A DNA stretch of 64,000 nt from Spirochaetia bacterium (GTDB taxonomy: Bacteria; Spirochaetota; Spirochaetia; SZUA-6; Bin103): assembly GCA_965198005.1 (NCBI GenBank), contig CBDAOI010000004.1, forward strand, positions 192,001 through 256,000, in the 5' to 3' direction. Positions 1,103 through 59,557 of the stretch are shown one piece after another. The notes under the pieces were generated by a model that was not told where the DNA came from, did no database searches, and worked only from the letters and a program-made list of their open reading frames with translations. The first letter of the stretch is position 1; each line of letters begins with the position of its first letter. The position numbers and the translations under genes were made by a program.

Positions 1103-1197
1103 AAGGAGCGACTCCCCGCTGGCCACGCAAGAAAGGGGGCTGGGGGTTGCGCTTCCGAGCGCGCTCCCGGCCCTCACTCATTGAATAGGGTGTCCCC

Positions 1198-2620: not shown

Positions 2621-2973
2621 CTCCCGGGGTTCGACGGATCGATGACGAAGCCTGTGGCCGGTTGGCGGTGACGCGACCGGTGGATCATCCCCCCCTCCCC
2701 CCCCGGGGGGGCGCGTGACCGAGTACCCAAGCAACCGATAACTCCGGACCGCTCGTCGAGCCGCATCTATCACCCGTTCGCCATCAGCGCCGCTGACGAC
2801 TTGGCGGCTCCGTTCGACCTCCACACCCATCGCACCACGGTGCTGCGCGGCACCGTGCGCGCCGAGCCGTGGCCCGACCATCATCAGCATGCCACACCCG
2901 CCGGAGTTTCCGGCCAAAGAAAACACGGGTACCGGGACGCAGTCCCGATCCCGAAAACGAGGAGGAGTACATT

Positions 2974-4001: not shown

Positions 4002-4019
4002 GCACAGCGTAAGCCCGCC

Positions 4020-9910: not shown

Positions 9911-10797
9911 GAGCCCAACTCGGCGGGTCGGCGCCAGCACATTCGCAGGCGTCCGCGGTCATGCCACCGGAGCCCGCACCCGCGCCGCCGGCGGGAGCCG
10001 GGCCGTTGCTGCCCGAGCCTGCTGCCTCGGCGAGTGTTGCATCGGTGCCCGCCGCGGGACAGGCTGCGGCGTCAGGACCAGTGGGAGCCGGCCGCTTACG
10101 GCCCGAGCCGGCAGCTTCGGGGGGTGCCGCCGCGGTGTCGGCCGCGGGCGCGGCTACGCAGTCGGCGGGAGAGCCGCAGTCGCCCGCAGTCGTGGCGCGG
10201 GAGCCCGCACCGGCGCCGCCGGCGGTTGCACTCACCCCAGCGTGGACCGCGGAGCAGCAGGCCGAGCTGGTAGAGCTGGTTGCCAACAAGTCGGCGCGCG
10301 AGACGGAGAAGCTCCTGGCCGAGTTGGAGCCGGAGTTGAGGCTGCCGCGGGAGCGGGAGCGCGCCCTCGGCGGCGGCCGCTACGAGGTGCGGGTGATCCT
10401 GGACCAGACCAGCGTGGAGGCGATCTCAAACTTGAAGAGCTGGCTGTCGCACGTGAACCCGGGCTTTACCACTGGCCAACTGCTGGCCTATCTGCTGCAG
10501 CAGGCCCAGCGGACGTACGATCCGGTGCGCGAGCGGGGTCGCGCGGGGAAGCGGACGCCCGCGCCCGGCGGGCAACGCACTGCGCGCGAGCGGGGCACGG
10601 CACGTGAGACACGCGAGCACAGTAGCGCGATCAGCGGCGGCGGTGAGTCCGGAGGTGGCGCGATTGCCGCCGGTGCCCCTGATGACCGTGAGCCGGCGCC
10701 GGGTGCGGTAGCGCGAAGCTCGGCTCCCGCTGCTGCGGCTGCTGCGGCTGCTGCCGGGTCGCCGGCCGCCGGCCCGGCAGCAGCCCGGTCAGCCTGA
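9911..10797 (+). pseudogene. Fragment of an Ala/Pro-rich repetitive protein, possibly DUF222/HNH-type
   Basis: Internal repeats (EPAPAPPA x2, GAG..L.PEPAAS x2) flank a globular stretch KSARETEKLLAEL...LKSWLSHVNP; no clear start, no HNH motif retained. Confidence 0.4.
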
Positions 10798-10991
10798 TAC
10801 GGCCGGCGGCCATGCCTGTCCGCCACCTGCATGCCGCCTCGTCGGGCACATCGGGCACGATCACTCTGCGGGCGGTGGATGAGATCCTCGCTGCGGTTCC
10901 GGAACGAACCGTTCCCGAGTGGGACCGTTTGCCGGACACGCGTTCCTGAGCCGAGCAACGAGGTCGCCACACGCCGGCTGCGCGGGCGAGG

Positions 10992-11925
10992 TCAGCCGTC
11001 CTGGTCGCGGAATCGCCGGAGCGCGGCAAGGAATTCCGCCCCATCCGCGCAGCCAAGCGCCGCCGCCAGCAGCGCCTCCTCGGACGCCGCGGCGAACGCT
11101 TCCGTAGCGGTGGAGAACCTCGCCGACACTGCAATGCCGCGTGATTGCAGAATCTGACGGACCATCTGCGCACGACCTTCCGCACGGCCCTGCTCGAATC
11201 CCTGGCGCCGCTGCGAACGGAGCAGCGGATCGTCGTCCGGGCCGGTGCCTGCGCGCGCGCGCGGACGGCGCCGGCTCGTTCAGCGCCAGGTGAATCTCGT
11301 CCGCCCGCCAGCCGGGAAACGCCCGGCTCTCGGCCGCCACCCGGAACCGACCATGCTCCAGCAGATGAATCGTCAGTCCCGGGCGGCGCCCGCGTGCCCG
11401 CCTCGGCGACAGCGTGTCCGGCACCTCCACCCACACTTCCGGAAAGCCCCAGTCCTCGTACAGCGCCAGCTTGCCCCGCCGCGCGTCCGTGGTGTGATCC
11501 ACCTCCAGCACCACGTCGGGGAAGTCGTCCTCGCCCACCACCATGGCCGCCGGCCCTGGCTTGGCCCGCGCCGGATGCAGGTACACCGACTCGTCCGCCT
11601 GCATGATGCGCCGCGGCTCGCCGCCGGCGTCGCGCAGCAGCAGGTCCATCGAGCCGTAGCATTCGGTCGGTGAACCGCGCACCGTGGCGATCAACTCCGC
11701 CAATCTCGTGAACAGCCGCGACGGGCGCTCGTGATAGGGAGTGGTGGGCTCGCAGATCCAGGCGGTCTCGGTGGCCGCATCCCAATACTCGAGGCGCCCC
11801 TCGAAGCGGTCGATCTCGGTGCGCGGCAGGCGGACGGGCTTGCAGCCCGGGAATGCCGGCGGCTGGGCGTGCCGGGGTTGCGCTACTTCGTACCGCCTGG
11901 TTGGCGGTGCTTTGGTGCCGGCCAT
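10992..11925 (-). pseudogene. Uma2 (PD-(D/E)xK) family endonuclease, interrupted near the 3' end
   Basis: QADESVY...PDVVLEVDHTTDARRGKLALYEDWGFPEVWV; probable C-terminal helix at ~10992-11140 separated by unrelated sequence. Confidence 0.75.
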
Positions 11926-12494
11926 GGCGGCAGCGTAGGCCAGCTCGCGCGGGCCTGCAGGGCCGGCGGGCCGGACCCGCCGGCCCTTCGAAAGCGAAGC
12001 GATCGAGACCGAGGCAGTTGCCGGCAGTGCCGTGGCGGACTCTGGCGTGACCGGGCGGGCTTGGTGGTGCAGCCGCCAGCGGCGCCAGGGCCGCCGGAAA
12101 AAAGTGAAGAAAGTGCAATTGAGCGCTTGATCGCTTTGGCGCGGGTGTGCGATGGTGTCGGGGTTGGGGACTCGAACGGATTACGGATGATGCCTGACTA
12201 CGCAATGCAGCCCTGCCACCGGCCAGACCCGTTCACGCCGCCGACCGGCGTCGACCTGCGTCTGACCGGTACGCATACAGGAGGTGCCCGTGAAGCTGTA
12301 ATCCACCGCGGGACGCGATCAACGCAGTTGCGCCTGACCGCCCCCCGGGGTCAGTTCGAGGTTGTCGCCCTCGTTGGAACCGCCTGCACCGCACACTACA
12401 CAGAGCGGCAGACAGGCAACGAGAGCAGGCGAGGGGCCGGCACGAATATCAGCACATGCTCTCGAACGAGAATCGAGAATCGGAGGTTCTTCTC

Positions 12495-14270
12495 ATGAAC
12501 TACGTTTCCAAAATCGGTTTACTGACACTGGCGCTCGCGCTGGTGGCTACCGTTACGTTTGCCGCCGCCGAGGGCGAGGAGGCTGCCGCGGCCGAGAAGG
12601 AGATGGTGCTCGATCCATCCACCGGCGAGATGGTGGAGGCGCCGCGGTATGGCGGGACCCTCAGCTACGCCCGACCCGGAGCCGCTGAGCATTGCGATGT
12701 CTGGTCGATCAGTGGCTTTGCAACCTTTTACATCGGCCCGGTAGTCGAGAAACTCGTCATCGGCGACTGGGCGATTGGCAGGAGCGAGCATAACTGGCGC
12801 AGCTATAACGTGCCGTTCTCGGTCATGCGAGGACAGTTGGCGGAGAGTTGGGAAACGCCGGACGACACCACGATCATCGTCAAGGTCCGCCCGGGCGTTT
12901 ACTGGCACGACAAGCCACCGATGAACGGTCGGGAGCTGACCGCCAGCGATATCGAGTTCAACTATCATCGCCTCTTGGGGCTCGGCAGCGGCTTCAGCGA
13001 ACCCACGCCGTTCAGTTGGACGCTCCCTGCCGTCACATCCGTGACGGCCACCGACAAATCGACGGTAGTCTTCAAGCTGACGAGGCCGGACCTCTTTGGG
13101 GTGCGCAAGGCATTCGACACGTGGGATACGTGGATCTACCCTCCGGAGGTCATCCAGCAACACGGCGACATAAAGGATTGCAGGAATCTGGTGGGTACCG
13201 GGCCCATGGAGCTGACGGACCTCGTGGAAGGCAGCTCCATGACGTGGACCCGGGTTCCCGACTACTGGGGGTTCGACGAGAAGTTCCCGGACAACCGCCT
13301 GCCCTACGTCGACGAGCTGAACGCCCTGATCATGCCGGATGCGGCGGCGCGGATCGCGGCCCTGCGCTCGGGTCAACTCGATATGTTGGCGACTTTCGGC
13401 GACTCTCAAATGAGGTCACTCGACCAGGTGGAGAGCCTGCGCCGGACCGATCCCGACATCAGGATGTGGGAGATCGCGTTTCGGTCCGACAACGCATTCT
13501 CGTTCGTAAACCAGCAGAATCCACCTTTCGATGACATCCGGGTGCGCCGCGCCATGCAGATGGCTCTGGACCCGGAGACGATTGCGAACACCTACTTCAA
13601 GGGTATGGCCGATCCGACGCCGCAGGGAATGATCCACAGCGACAATGTCGGGACTGGCACGCCGTTCGACGAGTGGCCGGAGGAGGTCAAGCAGTACTAC
13701 CGCTACGATCCGGAACGGGCCAAGCAGCTTCTGGCCGAGGCGGGCTATCCCGATGGCTTCAAGACCCGTCTGGACTATGGGAATCGCTTCGATGCGAACT
13801 ACGCAGAGCTCGTCATTGGCTACTGGGGTGAGATTGGCGTCGACGTCGAGCTGTCCGTTAAACCCGGGCCGGAGATGGTAGCCATCCAGCGGGGGCATAC
13901 CACGGACGGAATGATGCACTTTTCCAGCGCTGCCACCTATGCCGATGCCGGCACGCTTAAGGCGGTTTTCACCTCCGGCTCCACCAGCAACTTTGGCAAC
14001 ATCAACGACCCGGATTTCGACGCTCTGATCGAACGCGCGGAGGCAGCCGCGACGCTGGAGGAGCGGAATCGGCTCACCAAAGAGGCGAATCTGTACGCCA
14101 TAGCCCAGCACTGGGAAGCCGTGGGTCCGACCAGCCCACAGTTCAACGTCGCCCAGCCGTGGGTCAAAGGCTATAACGGGGAGATATCGCTCGGCATGCA
14201 GGGCCAGTTCTTGACGCTGACGGCCCGCGTCTGGATCGATCAGGATCTGAAGCGGGATCTCGGATTCTGA
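12495..14270 (+). CDS. ABC transporter substrate-binding protein, family 5, intact
   Basis: RBS GGAGG; signal peptide; LAESWE, LVGTGP, DIRVRRAM motifs; ends RVWIDQDLKRDLGF. Confidence 0.94.
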   Translation: MNYVSKIGLLTLALALVATVTFAAAEGEEAAAAEKEMVLDPSTGEMVEAPRYGGTLSYARPGAAEHCDVWSISGFATFYIGPVVEKLVIGDWAIGRSEHNWRSYNVPFSVMRGQLAESWETPDDTTIIVKVRPGVYWHDKPPMNGRELTASDIEFNYHRLLGLGSGFSEPTPFSWTLPAVTSVTATDKSTVVFKLTRPDLFGVRKAFDTWDTWIYPPEVIQQHGDIKDCRNLVGTGPMELTDLVEGSSMTWTRVPDYWGFDEKFPDNRLPYVDELNALIMPDAAARIAALRSGQLDMLATFGDSQMRSLDQVESLRRTDPDIRMWEIAFRSDNAFSFVNQQNPPFDDIRVRRAMQMALDPETIANTYFKGMADPTPQGMIHSDNVGTGTPFDEWPEEVKQYYRYDPERAKQLLAEAGYPDGFKTRLDYGNRFDANYAELVIGYWGEIGVDVELSVKPGPEMVAIQRGHTTDGMMHFSSAATYADAGTLKAVFTSGSTSNFGNINDPDFDALIERAEAAATLEERNRLTKEANLYAIAQHWEAVGPTSPQFNVAQPWVKGYNGEISLGMQGQFLTLTARVWIDQDLKRDLGF

Positions 14271-24504: not shown

Positions 24505-25569
24505 TTGGTGTACGGTCAGTGCCGCGCATCATGCTGTCACGACAAGCCCCGACGGCTATACTCCGTGGTCGTGCGCCACTCCTGTCCGCTCGATCCGTTT
24601 GTCCCCGAGTCGCTTCGCTGTCTGTCGGATCCGGCACGCGATCTTCCGCGCTTGGCGAAGAGCCGGTCGGCGGTTGCGGCGATCGAGGCTGCCGTGGTCG
24701 AGGTTCCCACGCGGCACCGGCTACTGCTCGGCGACGCCCGGCGCGCGTCTCTGCCCGCCGGGTCGGTCCAGCTCGTGGTCACCTCGCCGCCGTACTGGAT
24801 TCTCAAGGAGTACCGCCAGGCCGACGGCCAGTTGGGGTGGATCGAGGACTATGAGGAGTTTCTCAGTCAGCTCGACCAGGTGTGGCGCATGTGCTACACG
24901 GCACTGGTGCCGGGGGGACGGCTCGTATGCGTTGTCGGCGATGTTTGCCTTGCGCGGCGCAAGAACCGCGGCAAGCACACGGTCGTGCCGTTGCACGCTT
25001 CGATTCAGGAGCACTGCCGGGAGATTGGCTTCGACAACCTGGCGCCGATCATATGGAGCAAGATCGCCAACGCGGCCTACGAGGTAGAGCGCGGCACCGG
25101 TGGGTTCCTGGGCAAGCCCTATGAGCCCAACGCCGTAATCAAGAACGACGTCGAATTCATCCTGATGCAGCGGAAAGGAGGCGGCTACCGAAAGCCCGGC
25201 CTTGCTGCAAGGATACTCAGTCTGCTATCGGAGCCCTCCTTCAAGCGGTTCTTTCAACAGATCTGGACCGACATCCCGGGTGAGTCGACCCGCGACCACC
25301 CGGCCCCCTATCCGGTTGCCCTGGCGGACCGGCTGATCCGGATGTTCAGTTTCGTCGGGGATACGGTGCTCGATCCGTTCAACGGAACAGCGACCACTCA
25401 GGTCGCGGCTGCGGCGTGTGGCAGAAACAGCATCGGCATCGAGGTAGACCCCGTATACTTCGCAGATGGGCTCGACCGTCTACGCCGCGAAAGCGGCGGT
25501 CTTCTGAGCACGGCCCAAGTGTCCACCGGCGAGGTGGGCACCCGTAGCGGCCTCCCCGCCACGGCGTAA
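24505..25569 (+). CDS. DNA amino-methyltransferase, beta-class order (N4-C/N6-A)
   Basis: VTSPPY (motif IV) precedes HPAPYP and VLDPFNGTATT (motif I); start uncertain. Confidence 0.9.
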   Translation: MVYGQCRASCCHDKPRRLYSVVVRHSCPLDPFVPESLRCLSDPARDLPRLAKSRSAVAAIEAAVVEVPTRHRLLLGDARRASLPAGSVQLVVTSPPYWILKEYRQADGQLGWIEDYEEFLSQLDQVWRMCYTALVPGGRLVCVVGDVCLARRKNRGKHTVVPLHASIQEHCREIGFDNLAPIIWSKIANAAYEVERGTGGFLGKPYEPNAVIKNDVEFILMQRKGGGYRKPGLAARILSLLSEPSFKRFFQQIWTDIPGESTRDHPAPYPVALADRLIRMFSFVGDTVLDPFNGTATTQVAAAACGRNSIGIEVDPVYFADGLDRLRRESGGLLSTAQVSTGEVGTRSGLPATA

Positions 25570-38740: not shown

Positions 38741-40081
38741 TCACGGCGCCCGGAGCTCTACCGCGGTTTCATATAGCCTCGTACGTTGGTGCACGGTACC
38801 CACACGTACTGAAGAGTTGACGATACTGTTGCCGGTTCGTTTGCTTCGCACTTCGTGCAGTTCGACAACCTTGAATCCTTCTCTTTCGGCGATTTCCGCG
38901 AATAGTCGGTCCGTTTGAAACTCCATGCCTTGGAGGATGTTGTTTCCGATGACGACGACGACGGTACTACCGGGACGCATGCGAGAAAGTGTAAGGGCAC
39001 AGAAACGCTGACAGTCATTGAAGTAGGCGGCAGCGTAGTTGGCCCACCCTGCGCCACCGTAGGCACCTTTCTCCGGATGTAGCGCCCTCAGTTCCTCCAA
39101 TTGTTTGGCCAAGTGGTCGAGCGGTGGCTCAAGGGCGATTTCCGGACCGGATCGCACGGTCTGCCAGAATTGACCGAAGTTCTGCTGTTCCATTGTCTTC
39201 AGGTTGCTGGCCTCCTTGGTCATTCCCAACCAGAAGAGATGCGGGCGAGTATTCCTGATGTAATGATAGTTGTTCAGATATGGCGGCGAAGTGATAAGCG
39301 CATCGATGCTGCGCGCCTCCGTTCTCTGCACATGATCGAAGTATGACAGTGGATGGACTATCGCCCGCGGTACTTGTTCGTGTTGTTTCATCCAACCCTG
39401 AAACGTAACGATGTCATCACGCATTCCCAACAGCTTTCGGCGTACTATACCGAACACGTCGGCATGCTGGATAGTGGGTTTTCCGGCGCCGGCTCGCGTG
39501 CCGAGACTCGGCTCATAGGAGTAGTTGGAAAAACTCACCATCACCGAACCAAAGGCCACACGAAACAGGTCCATTACCCATGCTTTGGTACGTTGCATAA
39601 TGAAATCCATGCAGGCCAATACTTGTCGTTCTACGTCGTCGCTGAAGAACGGAACGCGACTCCGAAAGCCGCCGGGGCGTTTGGAAGATGGATTGATTGT
39701 CAACCAGGATTCGTCGTCACCATAGTCCTCGAACTGAGTGATTGAAGTCTCGAATTCGGCCACGTCGTATCGATTGGAAGCGGCCTTGACTCGGCAGGCA
39801 AGCGCAGCGTACGGGTTGATTTCGTAACCAACGGCGTCGTCGCCTTGTTTGAGCGCTTCGATCAGCGTGGTGCCGACTCCCGCAAACGGATCCAGAACGC
39901 GCATCCTGCGGCGGCGGGTCCGTACGCGGTCGAGCACGTCGGCTACGAACGATCCCGAAAATCCAGCGATCCACGGGACCCAGCGATGCAGAGTTCGATC
40001 ATGGTTCTCGGCAAACGCCGTGTCCCGGAATGTCGCCGCTTCCGGCGCAGCAAGCGTCGGCAGGCGGGTCCGGCTCACCAT
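38741..40081 (-). CDS. DNA amino-methyltransferase, alpha-class order (likely N4-C)
   Basis: VLDPFAGVGTT (motif I) before ITSPPY (motif IV); lower GC than flanks. Confidence 0.88.
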   Translation of the reverse strand: MVSRTRLPTLAAPEAATFRDTAFAENHDRTLHRWVPWIAGFSGSFVADVLDRVRTRRRRMRVLDPFAGVGTTLIEALKQGDDAVGYEINPYAALACRVKAASNRYDVAEFETSITQFEDYGDDESWLTINPSSKRPGGFRSRVPFFSDDVERQVLACMDFIMQRTKAWVMDLFRVAFGSVMVSFSNYSYEPSLGTRAGAGKPTIQHADVFGIVRRKLLGMRDDIVTFQGWMKQHEQVPRAIVHPLSYFDHVQRTEARSIDALITSPPYLNNYHYIRNTRPHLFWLGMTKEASNLKTMEQQNFGQFWQTVRSGPEIALEPPLDHLAKQLEELRALHPEKGAYGGAGWANYAAAYFNDCQRFCALTLSRMRPGSTVVVVIGNNILQGMEFQTDRLFAEIAEREGFKVVELHEVRSKRTGNSIVNSSVRVGTVHQRTRLYETAVELRAP

Positions 40082-40234
40082 GCAGAGGGAACTATCTTCG
40101 CTCATATTCCCGTAAGCTATCTCAATGGTTACACAGATGAACGTCAAGGCCTCGGCCAGCGCAGGATCTCTGCAGGGGAACTATCTTCGCTCATATTCCC
40201 GTAAGCTATCTCATGGTTACACAGAGGTCAAGGC
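40081..40234. repeat. Imperfect tandem duplication (~65-70 nt unit, 90-nt period)
   Basis: GGGAACTATCTTCGCTCATATTCCCGTAAGCTATCTCA occurs twice (copies begin 40081 and 40171). Confidence 0.93.
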
Positions 40235-48574: not shown

Positions 48575-49549
48575 ATGGACCCCGCCGACCAGCGGCCCGA
48601 GGTATCGGTGCCCGACCACAGTGGCAACGGCACGCCGCCCCCGGACAGCGTCAGGCCCGGCGCCAACGGCGCCCCGCCCGAGGCTGCCTCCGCGCAGCAG
48701 CCCGAGCAGCGTTCGTTCATCAGCGTCATCATCCATTCCTTCTTCATCATTCCGTTTCTGATCGCGGTGTTCGCCGGGCTGCTGGTGGTCACCTGGCGCA
48801 TCCTGACCAATGAGCCGCAGACGGTGTACGACTACATTGCCGACGTGAAGGTGGGCGGCGCCACCAAGCGCTGGCAGGCGGCGTTCGAGCTGTCCAAGCT
48901 TCTGGCCGACCCGGAGCGGGTCCCGCAGGAGCGGCGGTTCGTGGCGGAAATGCTGGGAGTGTTCGAGGCGGCCGAGCGCGACGACCCGCGCGTGCGCCAG
49001 TACCTGGCGCTGGCCATGGCGCGTGCCGGGCACGAGGCGTTCATCGAGCCGCTCGCGGTCGCGGTCGCGGAGGAGTCGGACGGGACCCGGTTCATGCTGC
49101 TGGTGGCGCTCGGGCTGTTCGGCGCCGGCGAGGTGCTGCCGGCGGTGGCGCCGTATCTGAACGACACCTCGGCGCGGGTGCGCTCGGGGGCCGCCACCGC
49201 CCTGGGACTGGCCGGGAATCCGGCGGCGGTCGCCCCGCTGCAGCGGGCGTTGCACGATCCCGAGCCCGCGGTGACCTGGGACGCGGCCCTGGCGCTGGCG
49301 CGGTTGGGCGATCTGAGCGGCAAGGAGATACTGCTCGAGCTGCTCGAGCGCGACTACCTGCAGACCTTCCCGAACGTGGACGACCGCGACGGCAACCTGC
49401 TCATGGCGACGGTGATCGAGGTGACTGCGCCGCTGGGCGATCCCGACCTGGAGGCGCGCATCGCCACCCTGGCGCGGGAGGATGCAAGTTTGAACGTAAG
49501 AAGAATTGCACAGCAGGCCGTAAGTGATTATGGTAAGCGCGGAAGGTGA
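48575..49549 (+). CDS. Membrane-anchored HEAT-repeat protein
   Basis: One TM helix, then repeats such as VRSGAATALG and VTWDAALALARLG. Confidence 0.8.
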   Translation: MDPADQRPEVSVPDHSGNGTPPPDSVRPGANGAPPEAASAQQPEQRSFISVIIHSFFIIPFLIAVFAGLLVVTWRILTNEPQTVYDYIADVKVGGATKRWQAAFELSKLLADPERVPQERRFVAEMLGVFEAAERDDPRVRQYLALAMARAGHEAFIEPLAVAVAEESDGTRFMLLVALGLFGAGEVLPAVAPYLNDTSARVRSGAATALGLAGNPAAVAPLQRALHDPEPAVTWDAALALARLGDLSGKEILLELLERDYLQTFPNVDDRDGNLLMATVIEVTAPLGDPDLEARIATLAREDASLNVRRIAQQAVSDYGKRGR

Positions 49550-49610
49550 CCTACCGGGCGGCCCGGCAACCACCGGGGCCGCGAGTGTCCACGAGCATGA
49601 GTAGAGGAAG

Positions 49611-50417
49611 ATGAGCCAGGAAGACGCGAAAGCCGGCGAAGCGCCGCAAGCGGCAGGCCCGGCCGGCGGATCCGAGGAGCAACCGGCCGCGGCCGTGGCC
49701 GGAACGCCCGAGGCCGCGGAGCGGGCCCCCCGGTCCTCCCGAGCAGCCGCGGCCGGGGAGGGCGCTGCAGCCCCCGGCGGCGTGGCGGGCGGCGCGGCGG
49801 GACGGCCACCGGCTCGTGCGGCCGGCCGTAGTGCGCGCGCGGCCCGCGCCGGTGCCGCCGGCGCCCGCTCCACCGCAGCCGTGAGCGCGCGCCCCGGCGC
49901 CGCCGGGGCCGTGGCTGCGGCCGGCACCGGTGACGTGTCGCGGCGCGGCTTCCTGTCCTGGATCACCGCCGGCTGGCTGGCGTTCGGGGCGCTGACCGCC
50001 GGCACCCTGATCGGGACGGTGCGTTTCCTGTTTCCCAACGTGCTGTTCGAGCCGCCGCAGACCTTCCGCGCCGGGTTCCCCGAGGAGTACACCGTGGGCG
50101 ACGTGTCGACCCGGTTCAAGGACCAGTTCGCCGTGTGGATCGTGCGTACGCCGACCGAGATCTACGTCCTGTCGACCGTCTGCACCCACCTCGGCTGCAC
50201 CCCCAACTGGCTGTCCGGCGAGCAGAAGTTCAAGTGCCCGTGCCACGGCAGCGGGTTCCGCAAGACCGGCATCAACTTCGAGGGCCCGGCGCCGCGGCCG
50301 CTGGAGCGCTACCGCGTGACCATGGCCGACGACGGTCAGATCCTGGTCGACAAGACCCGCAAATACCAGTGGGAGAAGGACGAGTGGAGCGACCCCGAGT
50401 CGTTCCTGGCCGTGTAG
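49611..50417 (+). CDS. Rieske iron-sulfur subunit
   Basis: Tat motif SRRGFL; CTHLGC and CPCHGS; GPAPRPL. Confidence 0.94.
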   Translation: MSQEDAKAGEAPQAAGPAGGSEEQPAAAVAGTPEAAERAPRSSRAAAAGEGAAAPGGVAGGAAGRPPARAAGRSARAARAGAAGARSTAAVSARPGAAGAVAAAGTGDVSRRGFLSWITAGWLAFGALTAGTLIGTVRFLFPNVLFEPPQTFRAGFPEEYTVGDVSTRFKDQFAVWIVRTPTEIYVLSTVCTHLGCTPNWLSGEQKFKCPCHGSGFRKTGINFEGPAPRPLERYRVTMADDGQILVDKTRKYQWEKDEWSDPESFLAV

Positions 50418-50455
50418 CGAGCGCAGCATGACGAACACGAGGAGCAAGGCGATCG

Positions 50456-51301
<846 letters not shown>

Positions 51302-51328
51302 AGCGCACCGGGACGCAGGCGTAAGGCG

Positions 51329-52435
51329 ATGCTCAAACAATTCTTCAACTGGGTCTCCAACCCCGCCGTTCTGTTCACGATCTTCATCGTCGGGTTCTTC
51401 TTCGTCTTTCCGCCCGGCGGCAAGCTGTACAAGCTCAACCGCCGCCTGAAGCTCGACCTGCTGTGGACGCCGGCGGGCGGCATCGTGTTCTTCGGGCTGC
51501 TGGCGATCTTCTTCCTGTGGGGCATCACCGACGCCAACTTCCGCCTCATCGTGTTCAAGCCGGACAACATCCCGATCACGGCGCTGCTGTTTCTGGTGCC
51601 GTTCTTCCTCTGGCACTCCATGAAGCAGGCGCGCGAGAACGACCTGCGCGCCGAAAAGGGCGAGCCGCCGCAGGAGGCGCTGGACAACGAGAAGGTGCTG
51701 GTGTGGCCCGACTTGGTGTACGTCGAGTTCATCTCGCTGATCCTGTCGATGGCGCTGATGATCGTCTGGTCGCTGTTCCTCAAGGCGCCGCTGGAGGAGC
51801 CGGCCAACCCGACCGTGTCGCCCAACCCGTCCAAGGCGCCGTGGTACTTCCTCGGCTTGCAGGAGATGCTGGTCTACTACGACCCGTGGCTGGCGGGGGT
51901 GGTGTTGCCGACCCTGATCATCGTCGGGCTGATCGCCATCCCCTACATGGACGTCAACGCCGGCGGCCAGGGGTACTACAGCTACAAGCCGCGCATGAAG
52001 TCGATCAGCATCTTTCTGTTCGGCTTCGTGGTGATGTGGATCTTTCTGATCCTGGTGGGCACCTTCCTGCGCGGCCCCAACTGGAATTTCTTTGGACCAT
52101 TCGAATTCTGGGATCCCAACAAGCGCGAGGTGTTGAACAACGTCAACCTCTCCGAGTACGTCTACATCTTTCTGCTACGCACCGGCTTACCTGAAAATAT
52201 TCTGGTGCGCGAGCTGTTCGGGATTCTGTTGATCCTGGGGTACTTCGCCATCGTCCCGGGGCTGCTGGCGCAGACCGCCTTCAAGCGGCTGTTCCAGCGT
52301 CTGGGGGTGGTACGCTACAGCTTCTTCATCGTGTTGCTGCTGATGGGGCTGGCGCTGCCGATCAAGATGTATACGCGCTGGCTGTTCAACCTGAAGTACA
52401 TCGTCTCGATCCCGGAATTCTTCTTGAACGTATAA
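51329..52435 (+). CDS. Cytochrome b C-terminal / subunit IV-like protein, extended
   Basis: VWPDLVY...PLEEPANP...KAPWYFLGLQE. Confidence 0.88.
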   Translation: MLKQFFNWVSNPAVLFTIFIVGFFFVFPPGGKLYKLNRRLKLDLLWTPAGGIVFFGLLAIFFLWGITDANFRLIVFKPDNIPITALLFLVPFFLWHSMKQARENDLRAEKGEPPQEALDNEKVLVWPDLVYVEFISLILSMALMIVWSLFLKAPLEEPANPTVSPNPSKAPWYFLGLQEMLVYYDPWLAGVVLPTLIIVGLIAIPYMDVNAGGQGYYSYKPRMKSISIFLFGFVVMWIFLILVGTFLRGPNWNFFGPFEFWDPNKREVLNNVNLSEYVYIFLLRTGLPENILVRELFGILLILGYFAIVPGLLAQTAFKRLFQRLGVVRYSFFIVLLLMGLALPIKMYTRWLFNLKYIVSIPEFFLNV

Positions 52436-55363
52436 ATGGCAGTCCGTCCTCAACCACCGCCGCCGCCGGAAGAGCGGCACTACAAGATCGGGACCCTCAA
52501 CAAGTGGTTCGCGATCGGCAGCATCGTGCTGCTGATCACCATCATCGCCTCGTTCGCGCAGGATTACGGGCGCGAGTGGAAGCGCTGGCAGCGGCAGTTC
52601 CGGCGCATCGACCGCGAGGTCACGCGCGGCGCGTACGACGAGATGGCGGCCGAGATGGCGAACAGCGCGGCCACGGCGCGGGCGCGCGAGCAGGTAGCCG
52701 CCGCCGAGGAGGCGCTGCAGGCGCGCCAGGACGACGTGCGCGCCGCCGAACGCGAGGTGGACCGCCTGCAGGCGCGGTTCGACGTGGCCAACTCCCGCTT
52801 CCAGAACGTGAAGGCGCAGATGGAGCGCGCCCGTTATCGCGACGAGCAGGCCGCGGCCGGCACCGAGGGGCTGGGCCTGCGGCGCGAACGCACCTCCGGC
52901 GAGCTGGAGCGCTGGCAGACCGAGTTCGCCGGCGCTTCGGTGGCGCAGGAGGAGGCGCAGCTCGCCCTGGAGCAGGCGCAGGCGGCGTTGCAGGGTTTCG
53001 AGGACGAGGTGCGCGCGGCGCGGCGGGCGCGCGATGAGGAGTCGCGCGAGGCCGACCTGTTGATGCGGCGCCTGGTGCGGATGGACCCGGAGTTCTCGCC
53101 CATGGGCGTGAAGATCGCCAACATTATCCGCGACCTGCCGATTCTGGATCTGTCGCAGCCGACGCTGAAGGTGGAGCAGGTGGTCCTGCCCGACGTCAAG
53201 GAGAACCTCAACTTCGTCCAGGTGCCGCGCGTGGACCGGTGCGTGACCTGTCACCTGGGGGTGGACCGCGCCGACCTGGCCGGGATCGAGAACCCGCACG
53301 GGGCGCACCCGCGGCTGGCGCTGTTCGTGGCCAGCGATTCGCCCCATCCGCTGGAGGAGTTCGGCTGCACGAGCTGCCACGGCGGGCGCGGCCGCGCCAC
53401 CGACTTCGTGGGCACGGTGCACCGCCCCGACTCCGAGGAGCAGCTCCACGACTGGGAACGCCGCCTCGGCTGGGAGGAGTACCACCTGTGGGAGGAGCCG
53501 ATGCATCCGCTGCGCTATGCGGAGGCGGGCTGCTTCCAGTGCCACAGCGGCCAGGCGCAGATCCGCGGCGCCGAGAAGCTCAGCTACGGCCTGCACCTGA
53601 TCGAGCAGGCGGGGTGCTACTCGTGTCACGAGATCGCGAGCTTCGCCGGCCATCCGCAGCGCGGCCCCAGCCTGCGCAGCGTGGCGGACAAGCTCTCCCC
53701 CGAATTCGCGTTCCAGTGGATCAAGGACCCCGCCGGGTTCCGCTCCCAGACCTGGATGCCGGCCTACTTCGGCCAGAGCAACAACAGCGACCCCGTGGCC
53801 ATGGCGCGCGCTGATCAGGAAGTGCATGCCATCGTCGCCTACCTGTTCGCCAACAGCACCGAGTATGCAAGGGAGGAAATTCCGGTGGCCGGAGACCCGG
53901 TACGCGGCGAAGAGCTGGTGGCGTCGGTGGGCTGCATGGCGTGTCACGAGACACCGGACGAGACCACCGGCGCCACCGGGCGTACGGTCACCAGCCAGCA
54001 GGAGTTGCGCCGCCAGTTCGGTCCCAACTTCCAGGGGCTGGGCAGCAAGACCTCGGCGCAGTGGGTCTACAACTGGCTCAAGGATCCCTCCCGCTACCAT
54101 CCCGGAACCCGCATGCCCAGCCTGCGGCTGGCCGATCAGGAAGCGGCCGACATCACCGCCTACCTGACGGGCTCCACCGACGCGGCGTTCGCGGGGCGGC
54201 CGGTGCCGGCGGTGGACGAGGCGGTGATCGACCGGATCGCGCTCGACTTCCTGTCCAACACGGCGCCGATGATTACCGCTCAGGACCAGCTCGCGGCCAT
54301 GAACCGCGGAGAGAAGCTGGAGTACGCCGGCGAACGGCTGATCTCCCACTACGGCTGCTTCGCGTGCCACGACATCGCCGGCTTCGAGGACGCGCAGCCG
54401 ATTGGGACCGCGCTCACCGACATCGGCCGCAAGGCCCTGCATCAGTTCGACTACGGCTTTCTCGGCGACCGGATCGAGCACAGCCGTACCTCGTGGTGGA
54501 CGGCCAAGTTGACCGACCCGCGGGTGTTCGACCTGCACCGCGACCTGGAGCCGCTGCAGCAGAGCCGGATGCCCGACTTCCGCCTCACCGACCAGCAGGT
54601 GGAGGCGATGGTCACGGCGCTGGCCGGCTTCGTGGAGCTCGACCCGAACGTCACCAGGATCGTGCCGCGCACGCCGCGCGACCTGCGCCTAGAGACGGGG
54701 CAGCACCTGGTGCGGCAAATGAACTGCCAGGGCTGCCACGTGATCGAGGGCGAGGGCGGCGCGGTGGTGGCGCAGGTGGCCGACTGGCTGGAACGGTTCG
54801 GGGGACGCTCCAGCGCCGATGCCGAGACCCTGGCGCCCAGCTTCGCGCCGCCCGACCTGCTGGGCGAGGGGCGCAAGGTGCAGACCGACTGGCTGTTCGC
54901 GTTTTTCCACCAGCCGTCGCCGATCCGGCCGTGGCTGCGCATGCGCATGCCCAGCTACGGCATGAGCGCCGAGCGCCGCAACGCGCTGATCGCCTACTTC
55001 ACGGCGCTGGACGACGCGGCCTATCCGTTCGCCGAGCAGGTGCAGCCGGAGCTGACGCAGGAGGAACTGGACGCGGCCCTGACCATGTTCTCGCCCAACT
55101 ACTTCAACTGCACCACCTGCCACATCCAGGGCGACCAGGTCCCGCCCGGCACCCCGGACCGCTGGGCGCCCGACTTCGCGCTGGCGTCGCAGCGGCTGCG
55201 TCCCGACTGGATCATCGACTGGCTGGCCGACCCGCAGTCGCTGATGCCCGGCACCCGCATGCCCGCGTTCTACCCGCTCGGCGCACCCGGCGTGCTCGAC
55301 AGCGACACCGCCCACCAGCTCGAAGTCCTGCGCGACTACCTGCTGACCCTGGGGTCACCCTGA
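52436..55363 (+). CDS. Membrane-anchored multiheme cytochrome c (8 CxxCH) with coiled coil
   Basis: CVTCH, CTSCH, CFQCH, CYSCH, CMACH, CFACH, CQGCH, CTTCH. Confidence 0.92.
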   Translation: MAVRPQPPPPPEERHYKIGTLNKWFAIGSIVLLITIIASFAQDYGREWKRWQRQFRRIDREVTRGAYDEMAAEMANSAATARAREQVAAAEEALQARQDDVRAAEREVDRLQARFDVANSRFQNVKAQMERARYRDEQAAAGTEGLGLRRERTSGELERWQTEFAGASVAQEEAQLALEQAQAALQGFEDEVRAARRARDEESREADLLMRRLVRMDPEFSPMGVKIANIIRDLPILDLSQPTLKVEQVVLPDVKENLNFVQVPRVDRCVTCHLGVDRADLAGIENPHGAHPRLALFVASDSPHPLEEFGCTSCHGGRGRATDFVGTVHRPDSEEQLHDWERRLGWEEYHLWEEPMHPLRYAEAGCFQCHSGQAQIRGAEKLSYGLHLIEQAGCYSCHEIASFAGHPQRGPSLRSVADKLSPEFAFQWIKDPAGFRSQTWMPAYFGQSNNSDPVAMARADQEVHAIVAYLFANSTEYAREEIPVAGDPVRGEELVASVGCMACHETPDETTGATGRTVTSQQELRRQFGPNFQGLGSKTSAQWVYNWLKDPSRYHPGTRMPSLRLADQEAADITAYLTGSTDAAFAGRPVPAVDEAVIDRIALDFLSNTAPMITAQDQLAAMNRGEKLEYAGERLISHYGCFACHDIAGFEDAQPIGTALTDIGRKALHQFDYGFLGDRIEHSRTSWWTAKLTDPRVFDLHRDLEPLQQSRMPDFRLTDQQVEAMVTALAGFVELDPNVTRIVPRTPRDLRLETGQHLVRQMNCQGCHVIEGEGGAVVAQVADWLERFGGRSSADAETLAPSFAPPDLLGEGRKVQTDWLFAFFHQPSPIRPWLRMRMPSYGMSAERRNALIAYFTALDDAAYPFAEQVQPELTQEELDAALTMFSPNYFNCTTCHIQGDQVPPGTPDRWAPDFALASQRLRPDWIIDWLADPQSLMPGTRMPAFYPLGAPGVLDSDTAHQLEVLRDYLLTLGSP

Positions 55364-55364
55364 C

Positions 55365-56153
55365 ATGCCGACCTTCGAACAGGGCTTCGCCGCGGTCGAA
55401 GCGGCCGCCGAGGCGGCGGAGGCCGCCGCCAAGAAGTTGGCCGCTACCGCCCGAAGGTTGCGGAGAGCAGCTCAGGAGGGAGCCATTGGCAAGATTCGGC
55501 GTGAGGGTGAGCAGTTCGTCGACGCGCTGGCTACGGCCGGCGAGACGGTAACCGGTGCGACGGCGAGCTGGCCATTCGCAGAGCCCGAGGAGACGGCCTA
55601 TCTGAACGAGCGATACGCAGACGAATTGCGTGGCGCGGCCGCGGCAGTCGGGCTTGATGTCAGCCTCCGTGACGATGCGCTCGTATGTTCGCCGTCCATT
55701 ATCCGACTGCTTCCTGCAGATCGCGCGCTGAAAGTCGACGGCAAGAAGCGCGCGGCCATTCGCCCATCGAGGCTGGTCGCAGATCTGCGTGCGATTCAGC
55801 AACGGATGCGGCCAAAGAGCGACGCCCAACACCAGCGCTTTCTGGAGGCGTTGTACAAGGCGTCAAAGGTAATCCGGGGCAAGTCGACGGATTCCCTGTT
55901 CGACGCCACTCGCGTCGTTTCGCTCGCAGACGTGTACGCGGTGTTTACGTCGCTGCCGGGGAGCAGCTTGCAGTACACGAAGACCGATTTTGCGCGCGAT
56001 ATCTACTTGTTGGACAGCTCATCGATCGCAAGGACCAAATCAGGATCACAAGTGAGCTTCACGGGCTCGGTCAGACAGAGTTCCGGGATCTTCTCGTTCG
56101 TTGACGCCAACGGCAACGTAATCCGCTATTATGGCGTGCAGTTTACGGAGTAA
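55365..56153 (+). CDS. Hypothetical protein (N-terminal helical/coiled region, possible C-terminal winged helix)
   Basis: 262-aa intact ORF; first gene of a tightly spaced trio. Confidence 0.75.
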   Translation: MPTFEQGFAAVEAAAEAAEAAAKKLAATARRLRRAAQEGAIGKIRREGEQFVDALATAGETVTGATASWPFAEPEETAYLNERYADELRGAAAAVGLDVSLRDDALVCSPSIIRLLPADRALKVDGKKRAAIRPSRLVADLRAIQQRMRPKSDAQHQRFLEALYKASKVIRGKSTDSLFDATRVVSLADVYAVFTSLPGSSLQYTKTDFARDIYLLDSSSIARTKSGSQVSFTGSVRQSSGIFSFVDANGNVIRYYGVQFTE

Positions 56154-56158
56154 GGCCC

Positions 56159-57109
56159 ATGCACGTAGCTGAGTGGCTTGGAAGGGTCGAGGTGGACTAT
56201 CTCGCTACGTTCATCGAGCAAGGCGGGGCAGCGGTCAAGTTCGTCGTGGGTGACGGCCGGCTGCGATCAGAGGTCTGTTCCGGACTCACTACCGTCGCAG
56301 AGGAGCGCGGGTACTTGGTGCTGAGCGTGAATGCTGCTGAGCATCGGTTCCACATGCCACAGGACATTTTTTTTGCGCTTGCGGCTCAGGTTGACTGGCG
56401 GCTGGCGGCGCGTCGCTTCCTCCTCCAGTTGGCGCAAAGCGAAGGCTACCGAATCGATGGTGTGGAAGCGGCCCAAGAGGACGTGCTGCAGGCCGTTGCC
56501 GAGCGCAACGACGTGTCCAAGGCGTACCTCTTCACGAATCTGAATCCGCGGCTGCAGCGCCAAGTCTTCTTTGACGTGAACATGGCCAAGGATTTCCGCG
56601 TAGCCATGTCCCACTTGTGCGTGTTTGAACGCGCTCCTGACGTACCGTACCCGGGGCAGCCGATCGTCGACTGGCTTACCGGCGCCAACACGCGCATTTC
56701 AAACGTCAAGCCGTTTTCAATCTACAATCCGATAAATCGCACCACGGCACGCCACCTGCTGCGATCCGCCTGCTACTGGTTCCACAAGGCCGGCTATCCG
56801 GGGACGGTGCTGGTGCTCGACAACGCCCGAGTTACAGAACGGAAACGGCCGGCTGATGGATCGCGGTACTACACCAGAGCCATGACCATGGACCACTACG
56901 AGATACTGCGCGAATTCATCGACGGCGCGGACCGGCTGGTCGCAACCTTGCTCGTATCCTGCTCGGACGGTGCGTTTCTGGATCAGGAAGCCGATCGGCA
57001 GTCACGCGGAGTAGGCATTTACCCAGCCTTGCAGACCAGGATCATCGATGATGTGCGCGACAAACGGATGGAGAATCCATCAGCGGCGCTATGCCGGTTG
57101 ACGATTTAG
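56159..57109 (+). CDS. BrxD/DUF2791-like ATPase paralogue with degenerate Walker motifs
   Basis: AAVKFVVGDGRLRS at the Walker A position; GYPGTVLVLDN at Walker B; YEILREFID; YPALQTRI. Confidence 0.65.
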   Translation: MHVAEWLGRVEVDYLATFIEQGGAAVKFVVGDGRLRSEVCSGLTTVAEERGYLVLSVNAAEHRFHMPQDIFFALAAQVDWRLAARRFLLQLAQSEGYRIDGVEAAQEDVLQAVAERNDVSKAYLFTNLNPRLQRQVFFDVNMAKDFRVAMSHLCVFERAPDVPYPGQPIVDWLTGANTRISNVKPFSIYNPINRTTARHLLRSACYWFHKAGYPGTVLVLDNARVTERKRPADGSRYYTRAMTMDHYEILREFIDGADRLVATLLVSCSDGAFLDQEADRQSRGVGIYPALQTRIIDDVRDKRMENPSAALCRLTI

Positions 57110-57118
57110 GAACAGAGC

Positions 57119-58366
57119 ATGGAAGACCTTCCTGAACAGCTTGCATGTCGTCGCGCCATAGAGGCGTTGCGCAACGGCGTTCCCAATCGGGAGGCGGTGC
57201 GCATTCTCGGGAGCACGCAGCCGCAGGCGGAGCAGCAGTTCCAGGCACGCTTAAGCCAGGGAGGAGCAGACAATCTGGGCGGCATGCTGATCTCCGGTGA
57301 CTTCGGCACCGGCAAGTCGCATCTGCTGGAGCATTTTGAGCACCTCGCGCTGGACCGAAACTTCGTCTGCAGTCGGGTTGCCGTAAGCAAAGAGACGCCG
57401 TTCTACGACTTGGCAAAGATGTTTCGCGCGGCGGCCGACAACGGTGCTCTCCCCGACGGCAGAGTGGGCGCCATGGTCGACGAGATCGGGACCCGGCTGG
57501 CGGGTCCCAAAGACGAACGTTACGCTCGGTTCTTCAGGTGGGCGGATGCTTCCGACAATGGGCTGCACCGCATCTTCCCTGCTACGCTGATGGTGCACGA
57601 ACGGCTGCCGGACCAGGAGGCACTCAACGCGATCAGGTGGTTCTGGTCCGGTGACAGGGTGGCCGTGGGTGACATAAAGCGAGGCCTCCGTCAGATCGGC
57701 CAACAAGGCGCCTACACGTTCCGCGCTCCGAAGCTCCGCGAACTGCCACCGCAACGTCTACGCTTCGTACTGGAGATGATCAAGACGGCCGGCTATCGTG
57801 GCTGGGTGGTGCTCATTGACGAGTTGGAGCTGATCGGCAGCTACAGCCTGCTGCAGCGTGCGCGATCGTACGCGGAACTGGCCCGTTGGATGGGCGCGGC
57901 GGACGACGACTCGTATCCCGGGCTGGTGGTCGTGGCGGCCATCACGGAGGACTTCGTCGAGGCGATCCTGGAGAAGAAGGGAGACCGCCTCAAGGTACCA
58001 GCGCGGCTGCGTGAGCGTGATGAAGCACGCATGGCGCGGCAGGCAGAACTCGGTATGCAATGGCTCACCTCACGTCGCGCAAGGCTGAGCGAGGTGACCG
58101 ACGACGCGGTGGAAGCCGCGGTCGAGCACATCAGACGCATCTACAGCCGGGCATACGACTGGGCTCCACCAGCCGGTACGGCTGCCATTGGCGGTGCCGG
58201 CCACCAGAAGCGGATGCGGTACAAAGTACGCGCTGCTATCACCACGTGGGATCTGCAGCGGTTGCGCCCGGACTCTGACCCCGATGTGGAGACCGAGGAG
58301 TACCACCTGACGTACCGCGAGGATCACGACCTTGAAGTCGAGGCCCCGGAAGACTCGACGACCTGA
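57119..58366 (+). CDS. BrxD/DUF2791-like P-loop ATPase
   Basis: AIEALRNGVP; GDFGTGKSH (Walker A); GYRGWVVLIDELE (Walker B); RARSYAEL. Confidence 0.82.
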   Translation: MEDLPEQLACRRAIEALRNGVPNREAVRILGSTQPQAEQQFQARLSQGGADNLGGMLISGDFGTGKSHLLEHFEHLALDRNFVCSRVAVSKETPFYDLAKMFRAAADNGALPDGRVGAMVDEIGTRLAGPKDERYARFFRWADASDNGLHRIFPATLMVHERLPDQEALNAIRWFWSGDRVAVGDIKRGLRQIGQQGAYTFRAPKLRELPPQRLRFVLEMIKTAGYRGWVVLIDELELIGSYSLLQRARSYAELARWMGAADDDSYPGLVVVAAITEDFVEAILEKKGDRLKVPARLRERDEARMARQAELGMQWLTSRRARLSEVTDDAVEAAVEHIRRIYSRAYDWAPPAGTAAIGGAGHQKRMRYKVRAAITTWDLQRLRPDSDPDVETEEYHLTYREDHDLEVEAPEDSTT

Positions 58367-58406
58367 TGTGTCGGCGTGCGCCATGATGGGGAAGACAACA
58401 CGTTAA

Positions 58407-59003
58407 CTGGGCACTCTGAGGCCGTTCAGCGACATCGCAGGGCGCCATGTCTTACGGCTAAACAATACTCCTCAGCAGCGTCAGCAGCTTGCGCAGCGAT
58501 TGCAGGCCGCTGGTTGTCCGGTGAAACTGGACGGAACTGACTGGCAGACTCAGGGTGACTTTGATGCAGCTCTCAAGTTGGCGCAAGTGTCGCGTGATTC
58601 AGCAGTGACAGTCGAAGATCCGCAACTCACTACAGAGGCAAAACACGTACTTAGCGAAGCGGCACTGGATGCTGATCGGATGATACACAAGATCAGGACC
58701 CTCGGTGGCATGGAAATCAGGACCCATGGCACGACATTCGGAACAATGGGTGACCCTGAGTCGGAAGCAAACTGGGAAGGAGCTCTTGGTGAGCTGGTGG
58801 AGCGGGGACTTGCCAAAGACAAGAATAACAAGGACACAGTTTTCCTGGTGACCCGTGAAGGTTTTCGAGTTGCGCGGCAACTGTCGAATGGTGCGTCACA
58901 ACGAGCCTACTCAACCCCTTCCGACTATCCGGACATGGAGCGTTTGAGCCACGCAATCGTGCAGTTCCTCGGGCTGCGAAAGACCACGGTCGCCACCGTG
59001 TAG
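58407..59003 (+). pseudogene. 5'-truncated TIR-like nucleotide-binding protein with C-terminal wHTH-like domain
   Basis: Open frame after TAA: LRPFSDIAGRHVLRLNNTPQQRQQLAQRLQAAGCPV..GTDW; later WEGALGELVERGL...FLVTREGF. Confidence 0.55.
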
Positions 59004-59083
59004 GCGGGAGCCGGGTGTGCCATGCGTAAACGCTCGCTGTCTTGATTCTGACCACTGGTGCCGGTGGCTGATTCCACTGTTCA

Positions 59084-59557
59084 TCAGCGGCGGGTGTCGC
59101 CCGAGCGGGCGCTCTGCGCGGCCTGAATGTCCGGGGGCCAGTGGCTCTTGATGTATGCAAGCACGGCCCATACGTCGCCGTCGTCCAGTACGTCCTCGTA
59201 TACCGGCATGGCACTCTTGAAGCCTGGGCCGGCCACGGAGGCAGAGCCGAACTTGGTGATCCGGAACAGGATCTGATCGGAATGGTGCCAAGTGTGGCCG
59301 GTTACGTCGTGGGGCGGCGCCGGCAGGGTACCGTCGGGCTTCATCTGCCGCCAGTTCGGCTGCCCTTCGAGACGCAGGCCGTGACAGGATGCGCAGTTCT
59401 CCTGGTAGACGATCCGGCCGCGCGCCACCAGCTTCGCGTCGCTGGCGTCGGCTTGGTCGGGTTCGTCGTTCTGGCGTACGACGTAGCCCGCCGCGGCGAG
59501 GATCGCGGCCGCCGTCAAAGCGGTAACGGTGATGATGGTGAGGACGCGTCTGCTCAT
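59084..59557 (-). CDS. Monoheme cytochrome c
   Basis: N-terminal TM; CASCHG; PAPPHD.TGHTWHH; MP. Confidence 0.88.
   Translation of the reverse strand: MSRRVLTIITVTALTAAAILAAAGYVVRQNDEPDQADASDAKLVARGRIVYQENCASCHGLRLEGQPNWRQMKPDGTLPAPPHDVTGHTWHHSDQILFRITKFGSASVAGPGFKSAMPVYEDVLDDGDVWAVLAYIKSHWPPDIQAAQSARSGDTRR

Follow-up and report, generated by a model that had tools for sequence, protein, structure and literature searches.

Why two ATPases of the BrxD kind should be encoded side by side at the end of a respiratory operon, with no other component of a bacteriophage exclusion (BREX) system around them, is the question raised by three genes at positions 55365..58366 of the 64,000-nucleotide stretch of DNA analysed here (the window; Spirochaetia bacterium, assembly GCA_965198005.1, contig CBDAOI010000004.1). 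The genes, O1, O2 and O3, form a conserved unit, referred to below as the trio. We propose, with a probability of roughly 0.55, that these genes make up the first part of a five-gene operon, widespread but unnamed, which this lineage has kept without its effector, and that the trio represents the sensor or loader half of a candidate defence system.

The trio and its paired ATPases

The open reading frame (ORF) list bears out the arrangement given in a preliminary description of the window, namely three intact ORFs separated by 5 nt (O1/O2) and 9 nt (O2/O3), the first of which starts 1 nt past the stop of a 975-aa cytochrome c ORF. All three are on the plus strand. O1 (55365..56153, 262 aa) belongs to no known family, O2 (56159..57109, 316 aa) is a catalytically dead P-loop protein of the DUF2791/BrxD-like kind, and O3 (57119..58366, 415 aa) is an active-looking DUF2791/BrxD-like AAA+ ATPase of the ORC/Cdc6-STAND type.

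Both ATPase-like proteins score above the gathering cut-off (22.2 bits) of Pfam PF10923 (BrxC_BrxD, formerly DUF2791), O2 with 36.8 bits (E 2.8e-9, residues 18-315 on profile positions 43-332) and O3 with 80.7 bits (E 1.4e-22); O3 additionally matches AAA_16 (E 4.2e-6). BrxD is also the best PADLOC model for each of them (O2 E 1.6e-9). Against the NCBIfam BrxD equivalog NF033438, which has a cut-off of 350 bits, O2 and O3 reach only 33.6 and 67 bits, and by these scores the two proteins are members of the superfamily and not BrxD itself. A PDB sequence search with O3 as a single protein returned nothing useful, and profiles of O3 and O2 retrieved from the PDB only the P-loop stretches of BrxC, TnsC and DnaC-like loaders (E >= 0.012).

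The Walker motifs separate the two proteins. The sequences GDFGTGKS (residues 60-67) and LIDELE (232-237) of O3 agree with the patterns of an active AAA+ P-loop ATPase (Walker A GxxxxGK[ST], Walker B hhhhDE). The residues G60, G63, G65, K66, S67, D234, E235 and E237 are invariant in 29 homologues, as is an N-terminal EALRxGVPN motif, so that the canonical motifs first noticed in this one protein hold for its family and O3 remains an active-looking ATPase. At the corresponding positions O2 reads VVGDGRLRSE (P-loop) and VLVLDN (Walker B), and therefore lacks both a Walker A motif and an acidic residue after the Walker B aspartate. None of 34 O2 homologues contains GK[ST], and the residue following the invariant D221 is N, I, V, T, A, S or F and never acidic. 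Because these two features are shared by all 34 homologues, O2 is a family-wide pseudo-ATPase, and its motif loss is ancient. A complex prediction for O2, O3 and O1, with O1 as the scored partner, gave an ipSAE of 0.00 in both runs; made without controls, it counts as evidence neither way.

O1 matches nothing in Pfam, NCBIfam or PADLOC scans apart from a weak PADLOC ZorA match (E 0.03) that falls on its coiled coil. The PADLOC check envisaged in the preliminary description thus returned BrxD as best model for O2 and O3 and no system model for O1. The family is nevertheless large. A word-indexed search gave 68 clusters of homologues at 39-85% identity, and a profile search retrieved 911 representatives (clusters at 50% identity) with a threshold of E<=1e-3, 669 with 1e-10 and 294 with 1e-30; with few exceptions they are about 260 aa long. 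No informative name was found for these relatives among the 68 clusters, in a look-up of eight homologues or in the ESM Atlas, which holds only 'hypothetical protein' clusters, and a PDB sequence search with O1 as a single protein gave nothing useful. In the AlphaFold (AF2) model of O1, which has a predicted local distance difference test (pLDDT) score of 89.3, residues 4-66 fold into a long helical hairpin; this is followed by a short stretch with helical and beta-meander elements and, at about 149-262, by an alpha/beta domain that forms the C-terminus. With the full-length model Foldseek found nothing at E<=1e-3 and VIA found only coiled-coil and helical-hairpin proteins over residues 1-112. 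The C-terminal part folded alone (pLDDT 84.9) likewise gave nothing in Foldseek at E<=1e-3; its best 50 VIA matches are nearly all winged-helix domains on model residues 58-171, with a top Z of 5.9, which is weak, and include ORC/Cdc6, ESCRT-II, kleisin C-terminal, forkhead, linker-histone and HxlR-type regulator domains. A C-terminal winged helix, and hence DNA or partner binding, is a lead and not a result. It fits, weakly, the earlier suggestion of a DNA-binding or scaffold partner for the ATPases.

One genome per species was scanned with O3, which gave seven loci (L001-L007) in metagenome-assembled genomes (MAGs) labelled Spirochaetia. The order O1-O2-O3 is kept in 7/7 of these loci and in five further genomes of the window's family, which, with the window itself, makes 13 genomes from two genera that share this gene order. 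Scanning metagenomes with an alignment of O1 added 59 loci with O1 identities of 30-86%. O2 follows O1 in 52 of the 59, the other seven contigs stopping <=182 nt past O1, and O3 follows O2 in 35, the other 17 contigs stopping within the O2 match or at most about 100 nt past it. The next trio gene is thus missing from no metagenome locus with sufficient contig. The trio is a conserved unit, and it is conserved without pglZ in the flanks surveyed (see below). Its distribution is patchy: within the window's family 13 of the 23 other genomes have it, compared to 0/17 genomes from the order's other families and 0/400 others sampled in the phylum.

The helicase half of the operon in other organisms

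The trio is usually not alone. Among the 23 metagenome loci with at least 2 kb of sequence after O3, 22 encode an SNF2 helicase on the strand of the trio, either directly after O3 or one gene further on (20/21 loci if two near-duplicate pairs are merged). SNF2-rel_dom and Helicase_C were found in all 12 helicases scanned by Pfam, and three of these 12 end in a C-terminal Mrr_cat restriction-endonuclease domain. Their best PADLOC model is ZorD (E 1e-70 to 1e-77), followed by DpdE and DrmD. A further ORF of about 185 aa, O4, which belongs to no known family, often lies between O3 and the helicase, and its sequence corresponds to the N-terminal ~180 residues of longer helicases of about 700 aa. 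Free or helicase-fused, O4 is present in 20/23 loci. This pattern of fission and fusion links O4 to the helicase, and the frequencies of helicase and O4 indicate a native unit O1-O2-O3-O4-helicase, with or without a nuclease. The preliminary description had taken the trio for a stand-alone machine; given what follows it outside the window's clade, the window is better seen as holding a reduced, derived form.

The flanks of 21 distinct loci (94 proteins) contain no PglZ, PglX, PglW or BrxC, and no ZorA/ZorB (MotA/ExbB-type) or ZorC. Neighbours of defence or mobile type in these other loci include SRA-HNH, type I HsdS/HsdM, NERD, PIN, HepT/MNT, SocA, DUF4276 with AAA_21 and an IS110 transposase. 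Such neighbours, and the patchy distribution of the trio, speak in favour of a defence role. On one metagenome contig (L037, 4586-17677) the five-gene module and a PIN-domain gene lie between sdhC-sdhA-sdhB and a second sdhA-sdhB pair, as though a succinate dehydrogenase operon had been duplicated and the module had entered it or settled next to it.

L043, which alone among the metagenome loci with room has no helicase, lies on an unrelated branch of the O3 tree. Together with the 13 genomes of the window's family, in which the trio persists without a helicase in two genera, under purifying selection and in at least two chromosomal contexts (see below), it could be taken to mean that the three genes suffice for defence or for a DNA transaction and that the helicase present elsewhere is an optional accessory. 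On balance we consider this unlikely, since a helicase lies directly downstream in 22/23 loci with room outside the clade and the repeated fusion of O4 to the helicase argues for obligate partnership in the native system. L043 itself may be a damaged copy: a 2-kb insertion (10771-12767), which carries a 444-aa ORF on the opposite strand, separates its O1 from its O2.

Retention of the trio in the window's clade

By tblastn, no helicase or O4 follows O3 in any of 13 clade genomes (0/13), over 5.6 kb in the window and 8 to 10 kb in the other loci, and five helicases and eight O4 proteins used as queries found no module-type helicase or O4 in the window. O4 is also absent by search from the window's genome, which is 90% complete. 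The site held by O4 and SNF2 in other organisms (58367..59083, plus strand) is here a low-GC stretch (GC 0.554) with only an orphan 167-aa ORF (58500-59003) that matches nothing in Pfam, PADLOC or NCBIfam and is unrelated to O4 by tblastn. A maximum-likelihood tree of O3 unites the window with L001-L007 in a single clade (support 100/100) on a long stem and places the helicase-bearing loci elsewhere. The simplest account is a single loss of the O4-helicase half in the window's clade, the root of the tree not being established. What now follows the trio varies among relatives: a CAP12/Pycsar-type TIR protein and an AAA_16 ATPase in L001, DUF4143/AAA_14 ATPases in L005 and L006, and glycogen-metabolism genes directly in L003 and L007.

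A helicase acting in trans was also considered. The SNF2 genes of the window's genome are 35-36% identical to the module helicase and lack O4. The one of about 1400 aa (36% identity to the module helicase) shows no co-variation with the trio: in the family ten genomes have both, four only the trio, five only the SNF2 gene and five neither. Many of the searched genomes contain relatives of the second, of 1074 aa, at similar identity, and it is no marker of the trio. Both were rejected as partners.

Selection on the trio, one of two explanations offered earlier for its intactness, is now evident. All three ORFs are intact in 11/13 genomes. The median pairwise ratios of non-synonymous to synonymous substitution rates (dN/dS) are 0.20 for O1, 0.15 for O2 and 0.14 for O3; the cytochrome gene beside them has 0.22 (21 to 28 pairs for each gene; dS 0.58-1.67). 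These ratios are rough because dS exceeds 1 in many pairs and is partly saturated. The trio is kept under purifying selection in the window's clade. It also occupies at least two sites there. In 7/13 genomes it stands at the end of a bc-type operon with a junction of 1 nt or an overlap, an arrangement common to the window, L001, L002, L003, L004, L007 and L089; the sister genus has it at other places, such as behind an oxidoreductase gene (L005, L086 and L087). The occurrence of the same trio at two or more chromosomal sites indicates that the three genes relocate and are maintained together. Intactness, selection and the two sites together argue against both a recent arrival and a decaying remnant. 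The first of these, the other explanation offered earlier, is also made unlikely by the presence of the trio in 13/23 other family genomes, by its identical place in seven genomes and by the dS values of 0.58-1.67.

The second would make the trio what is left of a defence operon whose effector has been deleted and which is heading to pseudogenisation. The effector half is indeed gone in this clade, one frameshift each interrupts the O2 gene of L005 and the O3 gene of L087, and the trio has low GC at third codon positions (GC3) with an orphan low-GC ORF downstream. However, both frameshifts come from MAG assemblies and may be assembly errors, 11/13 genomes are fully intact despite a dS of 0.58-1.67, and the dN/dS values of 0.14-0.20 are not above that of the neighbouring respiratory gene. 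We regard decay as highly improbable.

The neighbouring respiratory gene raises a different possibility. It encodes a multihaem cytochrome c (52436..55363, plus strand, 975 aa; Pfam Cytochrom_C and others) and is by Pfam the final gene of an operon of Rieske, cytochrome b and cytochrome c genes; it lies outside the module. After loss of the helicase the trio may have been exapted for a host role, perhaps co-expressed with this bc-type operon. The junction of 1 nt or less in 7/13 genomes and the long-term retention under selection are consistent with this, as is the failure to find a sigma-70-like promoter or terminator between the cytochrome gene and the trio, although the underlying scan of 49000-59300 (no promoter-like sites; three terminator-like sites versus 5.4 expected) is uninformative. 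Against it, the sister-genus trio sits elsewhere (L005, L086 and L087), which shows that the trio need not be linked to the bc operon, and 10/23 other family genomes have no trio, unlike a core function. The trio moreover differs from the operon in composition: GC is 0.58-0.63 over 55500-58499 and 0.68-0.73 upstream, and GC3 is 0.72-0.75 in the trio and, well above this, 0.93 in the cytochrome genes, which confirms the less skewed codon use noted at first.

Transcript libraries bear on the same point. Four metatranscriptome libraries (X10, X11, X13 and X14) of one study, labelled sponge metagenome, contain 24-34% of the stretch's sampled words. Contigs from these RNA libraries match parts of O1, O2 and O3 without mismatch, and two of them span the O2/O3 junction; their coverage of the three genes is partial, and a bin without coverage carries no meaning. 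One contig runs from the 3' end of the cytochrome gene (55234-55350) into 255 letters that do not fit the window and may begin like the O1 homologue of a related strain, which would again suit co-expression. The contigs are a weak hint that the trio is transcribed; they may stem from contaminating DNA and thus cannot prove transcription. Taken together, an exapted role tied to the respiratory operon appears distinctly unlikely. Sequence nearly identical to 54800-58600 is also present in DNA-type runs of several studies.

Known systems and the possible function of the operon

One of the closest parallels to the five-gene operon is the BrxD-BrxHI pair of type 2 BREX/Pgl, in which a PF10923 ATPase of the ORC/Cdc6-type AAA+ kind is likewise encoded beside a superfamily 2 (SF2) helicase. 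In the accessible part of a 2026 survey (PMC12839542), BrxD and BrxHI form a tight dyad in type 2 BREX, and BrxD is proposed to load or activate a helicase there while its role is called uncharacterised; this part of the survey does not describe the trio. The module differs in having no PglX, PglZ, PglW or BrxC, in an ATPase that is doubled into a live and a dead copy, in a SWI2/SNF2 (ZorD-like) helicase where BrxHI is Ski2-like, a helicase that the window lacks altogether, and in O1 and O4, which have no BREX counterpart. The trio shows neither the surrounding BREX genes nor the BrxHI pairing that mark a type 2 BREX locus.

O2 and O3 could still be a dispersed BREX component, that is, BrxD proteins serving a remote PglZ locus. 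The Pfam and PADLOC BrxD models are their best matches, and the genome does contain a PglZ-domain gene beside a DUF6079 P-loop protein. This sole PglZ match of the genome, however, lies about 660 kb from the trio and outside the 64-kb window, and its locus has its own ATPase. The NCBIfam scores of 33.6 and 67 bits, far short of the required 350, the count of 0/94 for PglZ, PglX, PglW and BrxC in the flanks of 21 other loci, the lack of any BREX family among the trio's flanking genes in the window and the absence here of the dyad arrangement outlined in the available text of PMC12839542 reduce this explanation to a next to negligible one. The initial observation that no BREX gene is nearby is therefore upheld, and the trio is not part of BREX.

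Zorya type I consists of the membrane proteins ZorA and ZorB (MotA/ExbB-type) together with ZorC and ZorD. The module resembles it in one respect, the ZorD-like helicase of related loci, whose Mrr_cat domain in 3/12 cases recalls the Mrr-like nuclease of ZorD. In contrast to Zorya, its 94 flanking proteins include no ZorA, ZorB or ZorC, and no ZorD-like helicase stands beside the trio in the window, so it does not belong to this type. Shango, for which anti-phage activity has been shown, comprises a TerB-like SngA, an ATPase SngB and a helicase SngC, as far as its source is available (10.1101/2022.11.11.516204). It too is a small operon of a non-enzymatic protein, a P-loop ATPase and a helicase, and O3 has a weak PADLOC match to SngB (E 2.3e-6) that covers only 37 residues around the P-loop (56-92). 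O1, though, has no TerB match, Shango has a single ATPase, and its helicase is annotated in the same available text as DEAD/DEAH and not SNF2; with the SngB match this short and no helicase in the window, the trio is not a Shango system.

A paired active and degenerate ATPase also has a precedent. According to the accessible part of PMC12839542, BREX pairs BrxC, an active ORC/Cdc6-STAND ATPase, with BrxB/iSTAND, a partner of the same fold with degenerate Walker motifs, and O3 and O2 may be a similar pair of one fold. O2 is, however, full-length and matches PF10923 itself, unlike the compact iSTAND, and PADLOC and Pfam scans gave no BrxB match. PADLOC 2.0.0 has no model for O1 or O4. No description of the five-gene cluster was found in the full-text literature searched, which lies outside subscription journals and supplements, and the supplement of PMC12839542 may list such loci; in the one paper there that contains the word 'DUF2791', it stands in a section on DUF2971. 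We rate the five-gene operon as a candidate conflict system of the kind that combines an AAA+ ATPase with a helicase-nuclease, and the trio of the window as a reduced form of it.

How such an operon might work can be sketched from its parts. The native operon encodes O1, with a coiled coil and a winged-helix-like domain, the dead O2, the live O3, O4 and, as O5, a ZorD-like SWI2/SNF2 helicase that in some loci carries an Mrr-type nuclease. ORC/Cdc6-type ATPases form hetero-oligomeric ATP switches, and O2 and O3 may do the same. O1 would tether them to DNA or to a partner through its winged-helix or coiled-coil contacts, and in the full system the O1-O2-O3 assembly would recruit or license the helicase-nuclease on foreign DNA through O4. 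By virtue of this putative licensing step the full system is a candidate anti-phage or anti-plasmid system. The scheme is modelled on known ORC/Cdc6-STAND AAA+ proteins and on the BrxD-BrxHI proposal as it appears in the accessible part of PMC12839542. In the window's family the O4-helicase half was lost, most simply once, and the trio was kept and shifted as a block between two or more places on the chromosome; its intactness, its purifying selection and its movement as a unit suggest that it functions here without a helicase of its own. Our guess is that it is still a nucleotide-dependent DNA-binding sensor in this clade, acting alone or with an unlinked effector. A more specific version would make the five-gene cluster a new anti-phage or anti-plasmid system, in which O1 and a hetero-oligomer of active and inactive BrxD-like subunits sense foreign DNA and license a translocase-nuclease via O4, and would make the sensor half of the window's lineage, DNA of which is found in sponge-metagenome libraries, independent of the effector with a function of its own. 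We offer this version tentatively and consider it doubtful.

Several observations weigh against the proposal that the trio is the front half of a defence operon. The preliminary description regarded O2 as a paralogue of O3 with lost motifs; the motif loss is well supported, while the direct similarity of the two is weak. A BLASTP comparison gave E 0.13, and hhalign of the O2 family (34) against the O3 family (29) gave a weak match (E 7.8e-4, probability 24.9%), which comprises 209 co-linear columns and places the Walker B strands together. The putative paralogy of O2 and O3 therefore rests mainly on the co-linear PF10923 matches of both. The winged-helix assignment of O1 depends on model matches with Z <= 5.9, and O4, like O1, matches no PADLOC model. 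About half of the surveyed loci have housekeeping neighbours only (SHMT/NrdR/RibD, Sdh, hydantoinase), and searches of sequenced plasmids, phages and IMG/VR viral contigs turned up no relative of O1. The case for a helicase-independent function comes from selection, with the dN/dS ratios as rough as stated above, and every member of the operon is a candidate for a defence role on sequence grounds only.

If the operon is a defence system, it would add a family with hundreds of sequence clusters (911 O1 representatives) that PADLOC 2.0.0 leaves uncovered, and would provide a tractable case for the cooperation of a BrxD-type ORC/Cdc6-like ATPase with a helicase. The helicase-less clade is a natural experiment in which the ATPase-adaptor half is kept by selection without the nuclease-helicase. 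Counts of PF10923 as 'Pgl/BREX' in metagenome surveys would be inflated by proteins like O2 and O3; the accessible part of a 2016 sponge-metagenome survey, for example, counts PF10923 among 'Pgl' genes (PMC5099237).

Two other loci of the window's genome contain related families. The PglZ-domain protein (550 aa) belongs to a one-strand cluster at G000:C4:~909,700-919,200 (L015, 9731-19223), about 660 kb from the trio, together with a RelA_SpoT-domain protein (219 aa), family-less ORFs of 689 and 279 aa and the DUF6079 P-loop protein (824 aa, 1207 bits). Some of this cluster has a low GC3, and the cluster resembles a separate system, either related to BREX or based on PglZ. A 365-aa ORF at G000:C4:~1,805,500-1,808,700 (L014, 7554-10681, minus strand) gives another, weaker match to PF10923 (E 1.4e-7); it lies directly downstream of a family-less 677-aa ORF and both are surrounded by short low-GC3 ORFs in an island-like setting.

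Elsewhere in the window, the peptide/oligopeptide ABC-transporter genes at 2-4012 and 12456-14270 appear partly fragmented. SBP_bac_5 matches comprise an end-cut ORF of 366 aa, a 186-aa piece (3452-4012) that covers only profile positions 160-286 and a full copy of 604 aa, and a 270-aa ORF has only a partial permease match. These fragments are compatible with the earlier remark that nearly every other accessory gene of the window is broken. An ORF at 10861-11925 encodes a putative endonuclease of the Uma2 family, and N6_N4 DNA methylase matches lie at 24505-25569 and 38741-40147, the second of which covers only 30 profile residues.

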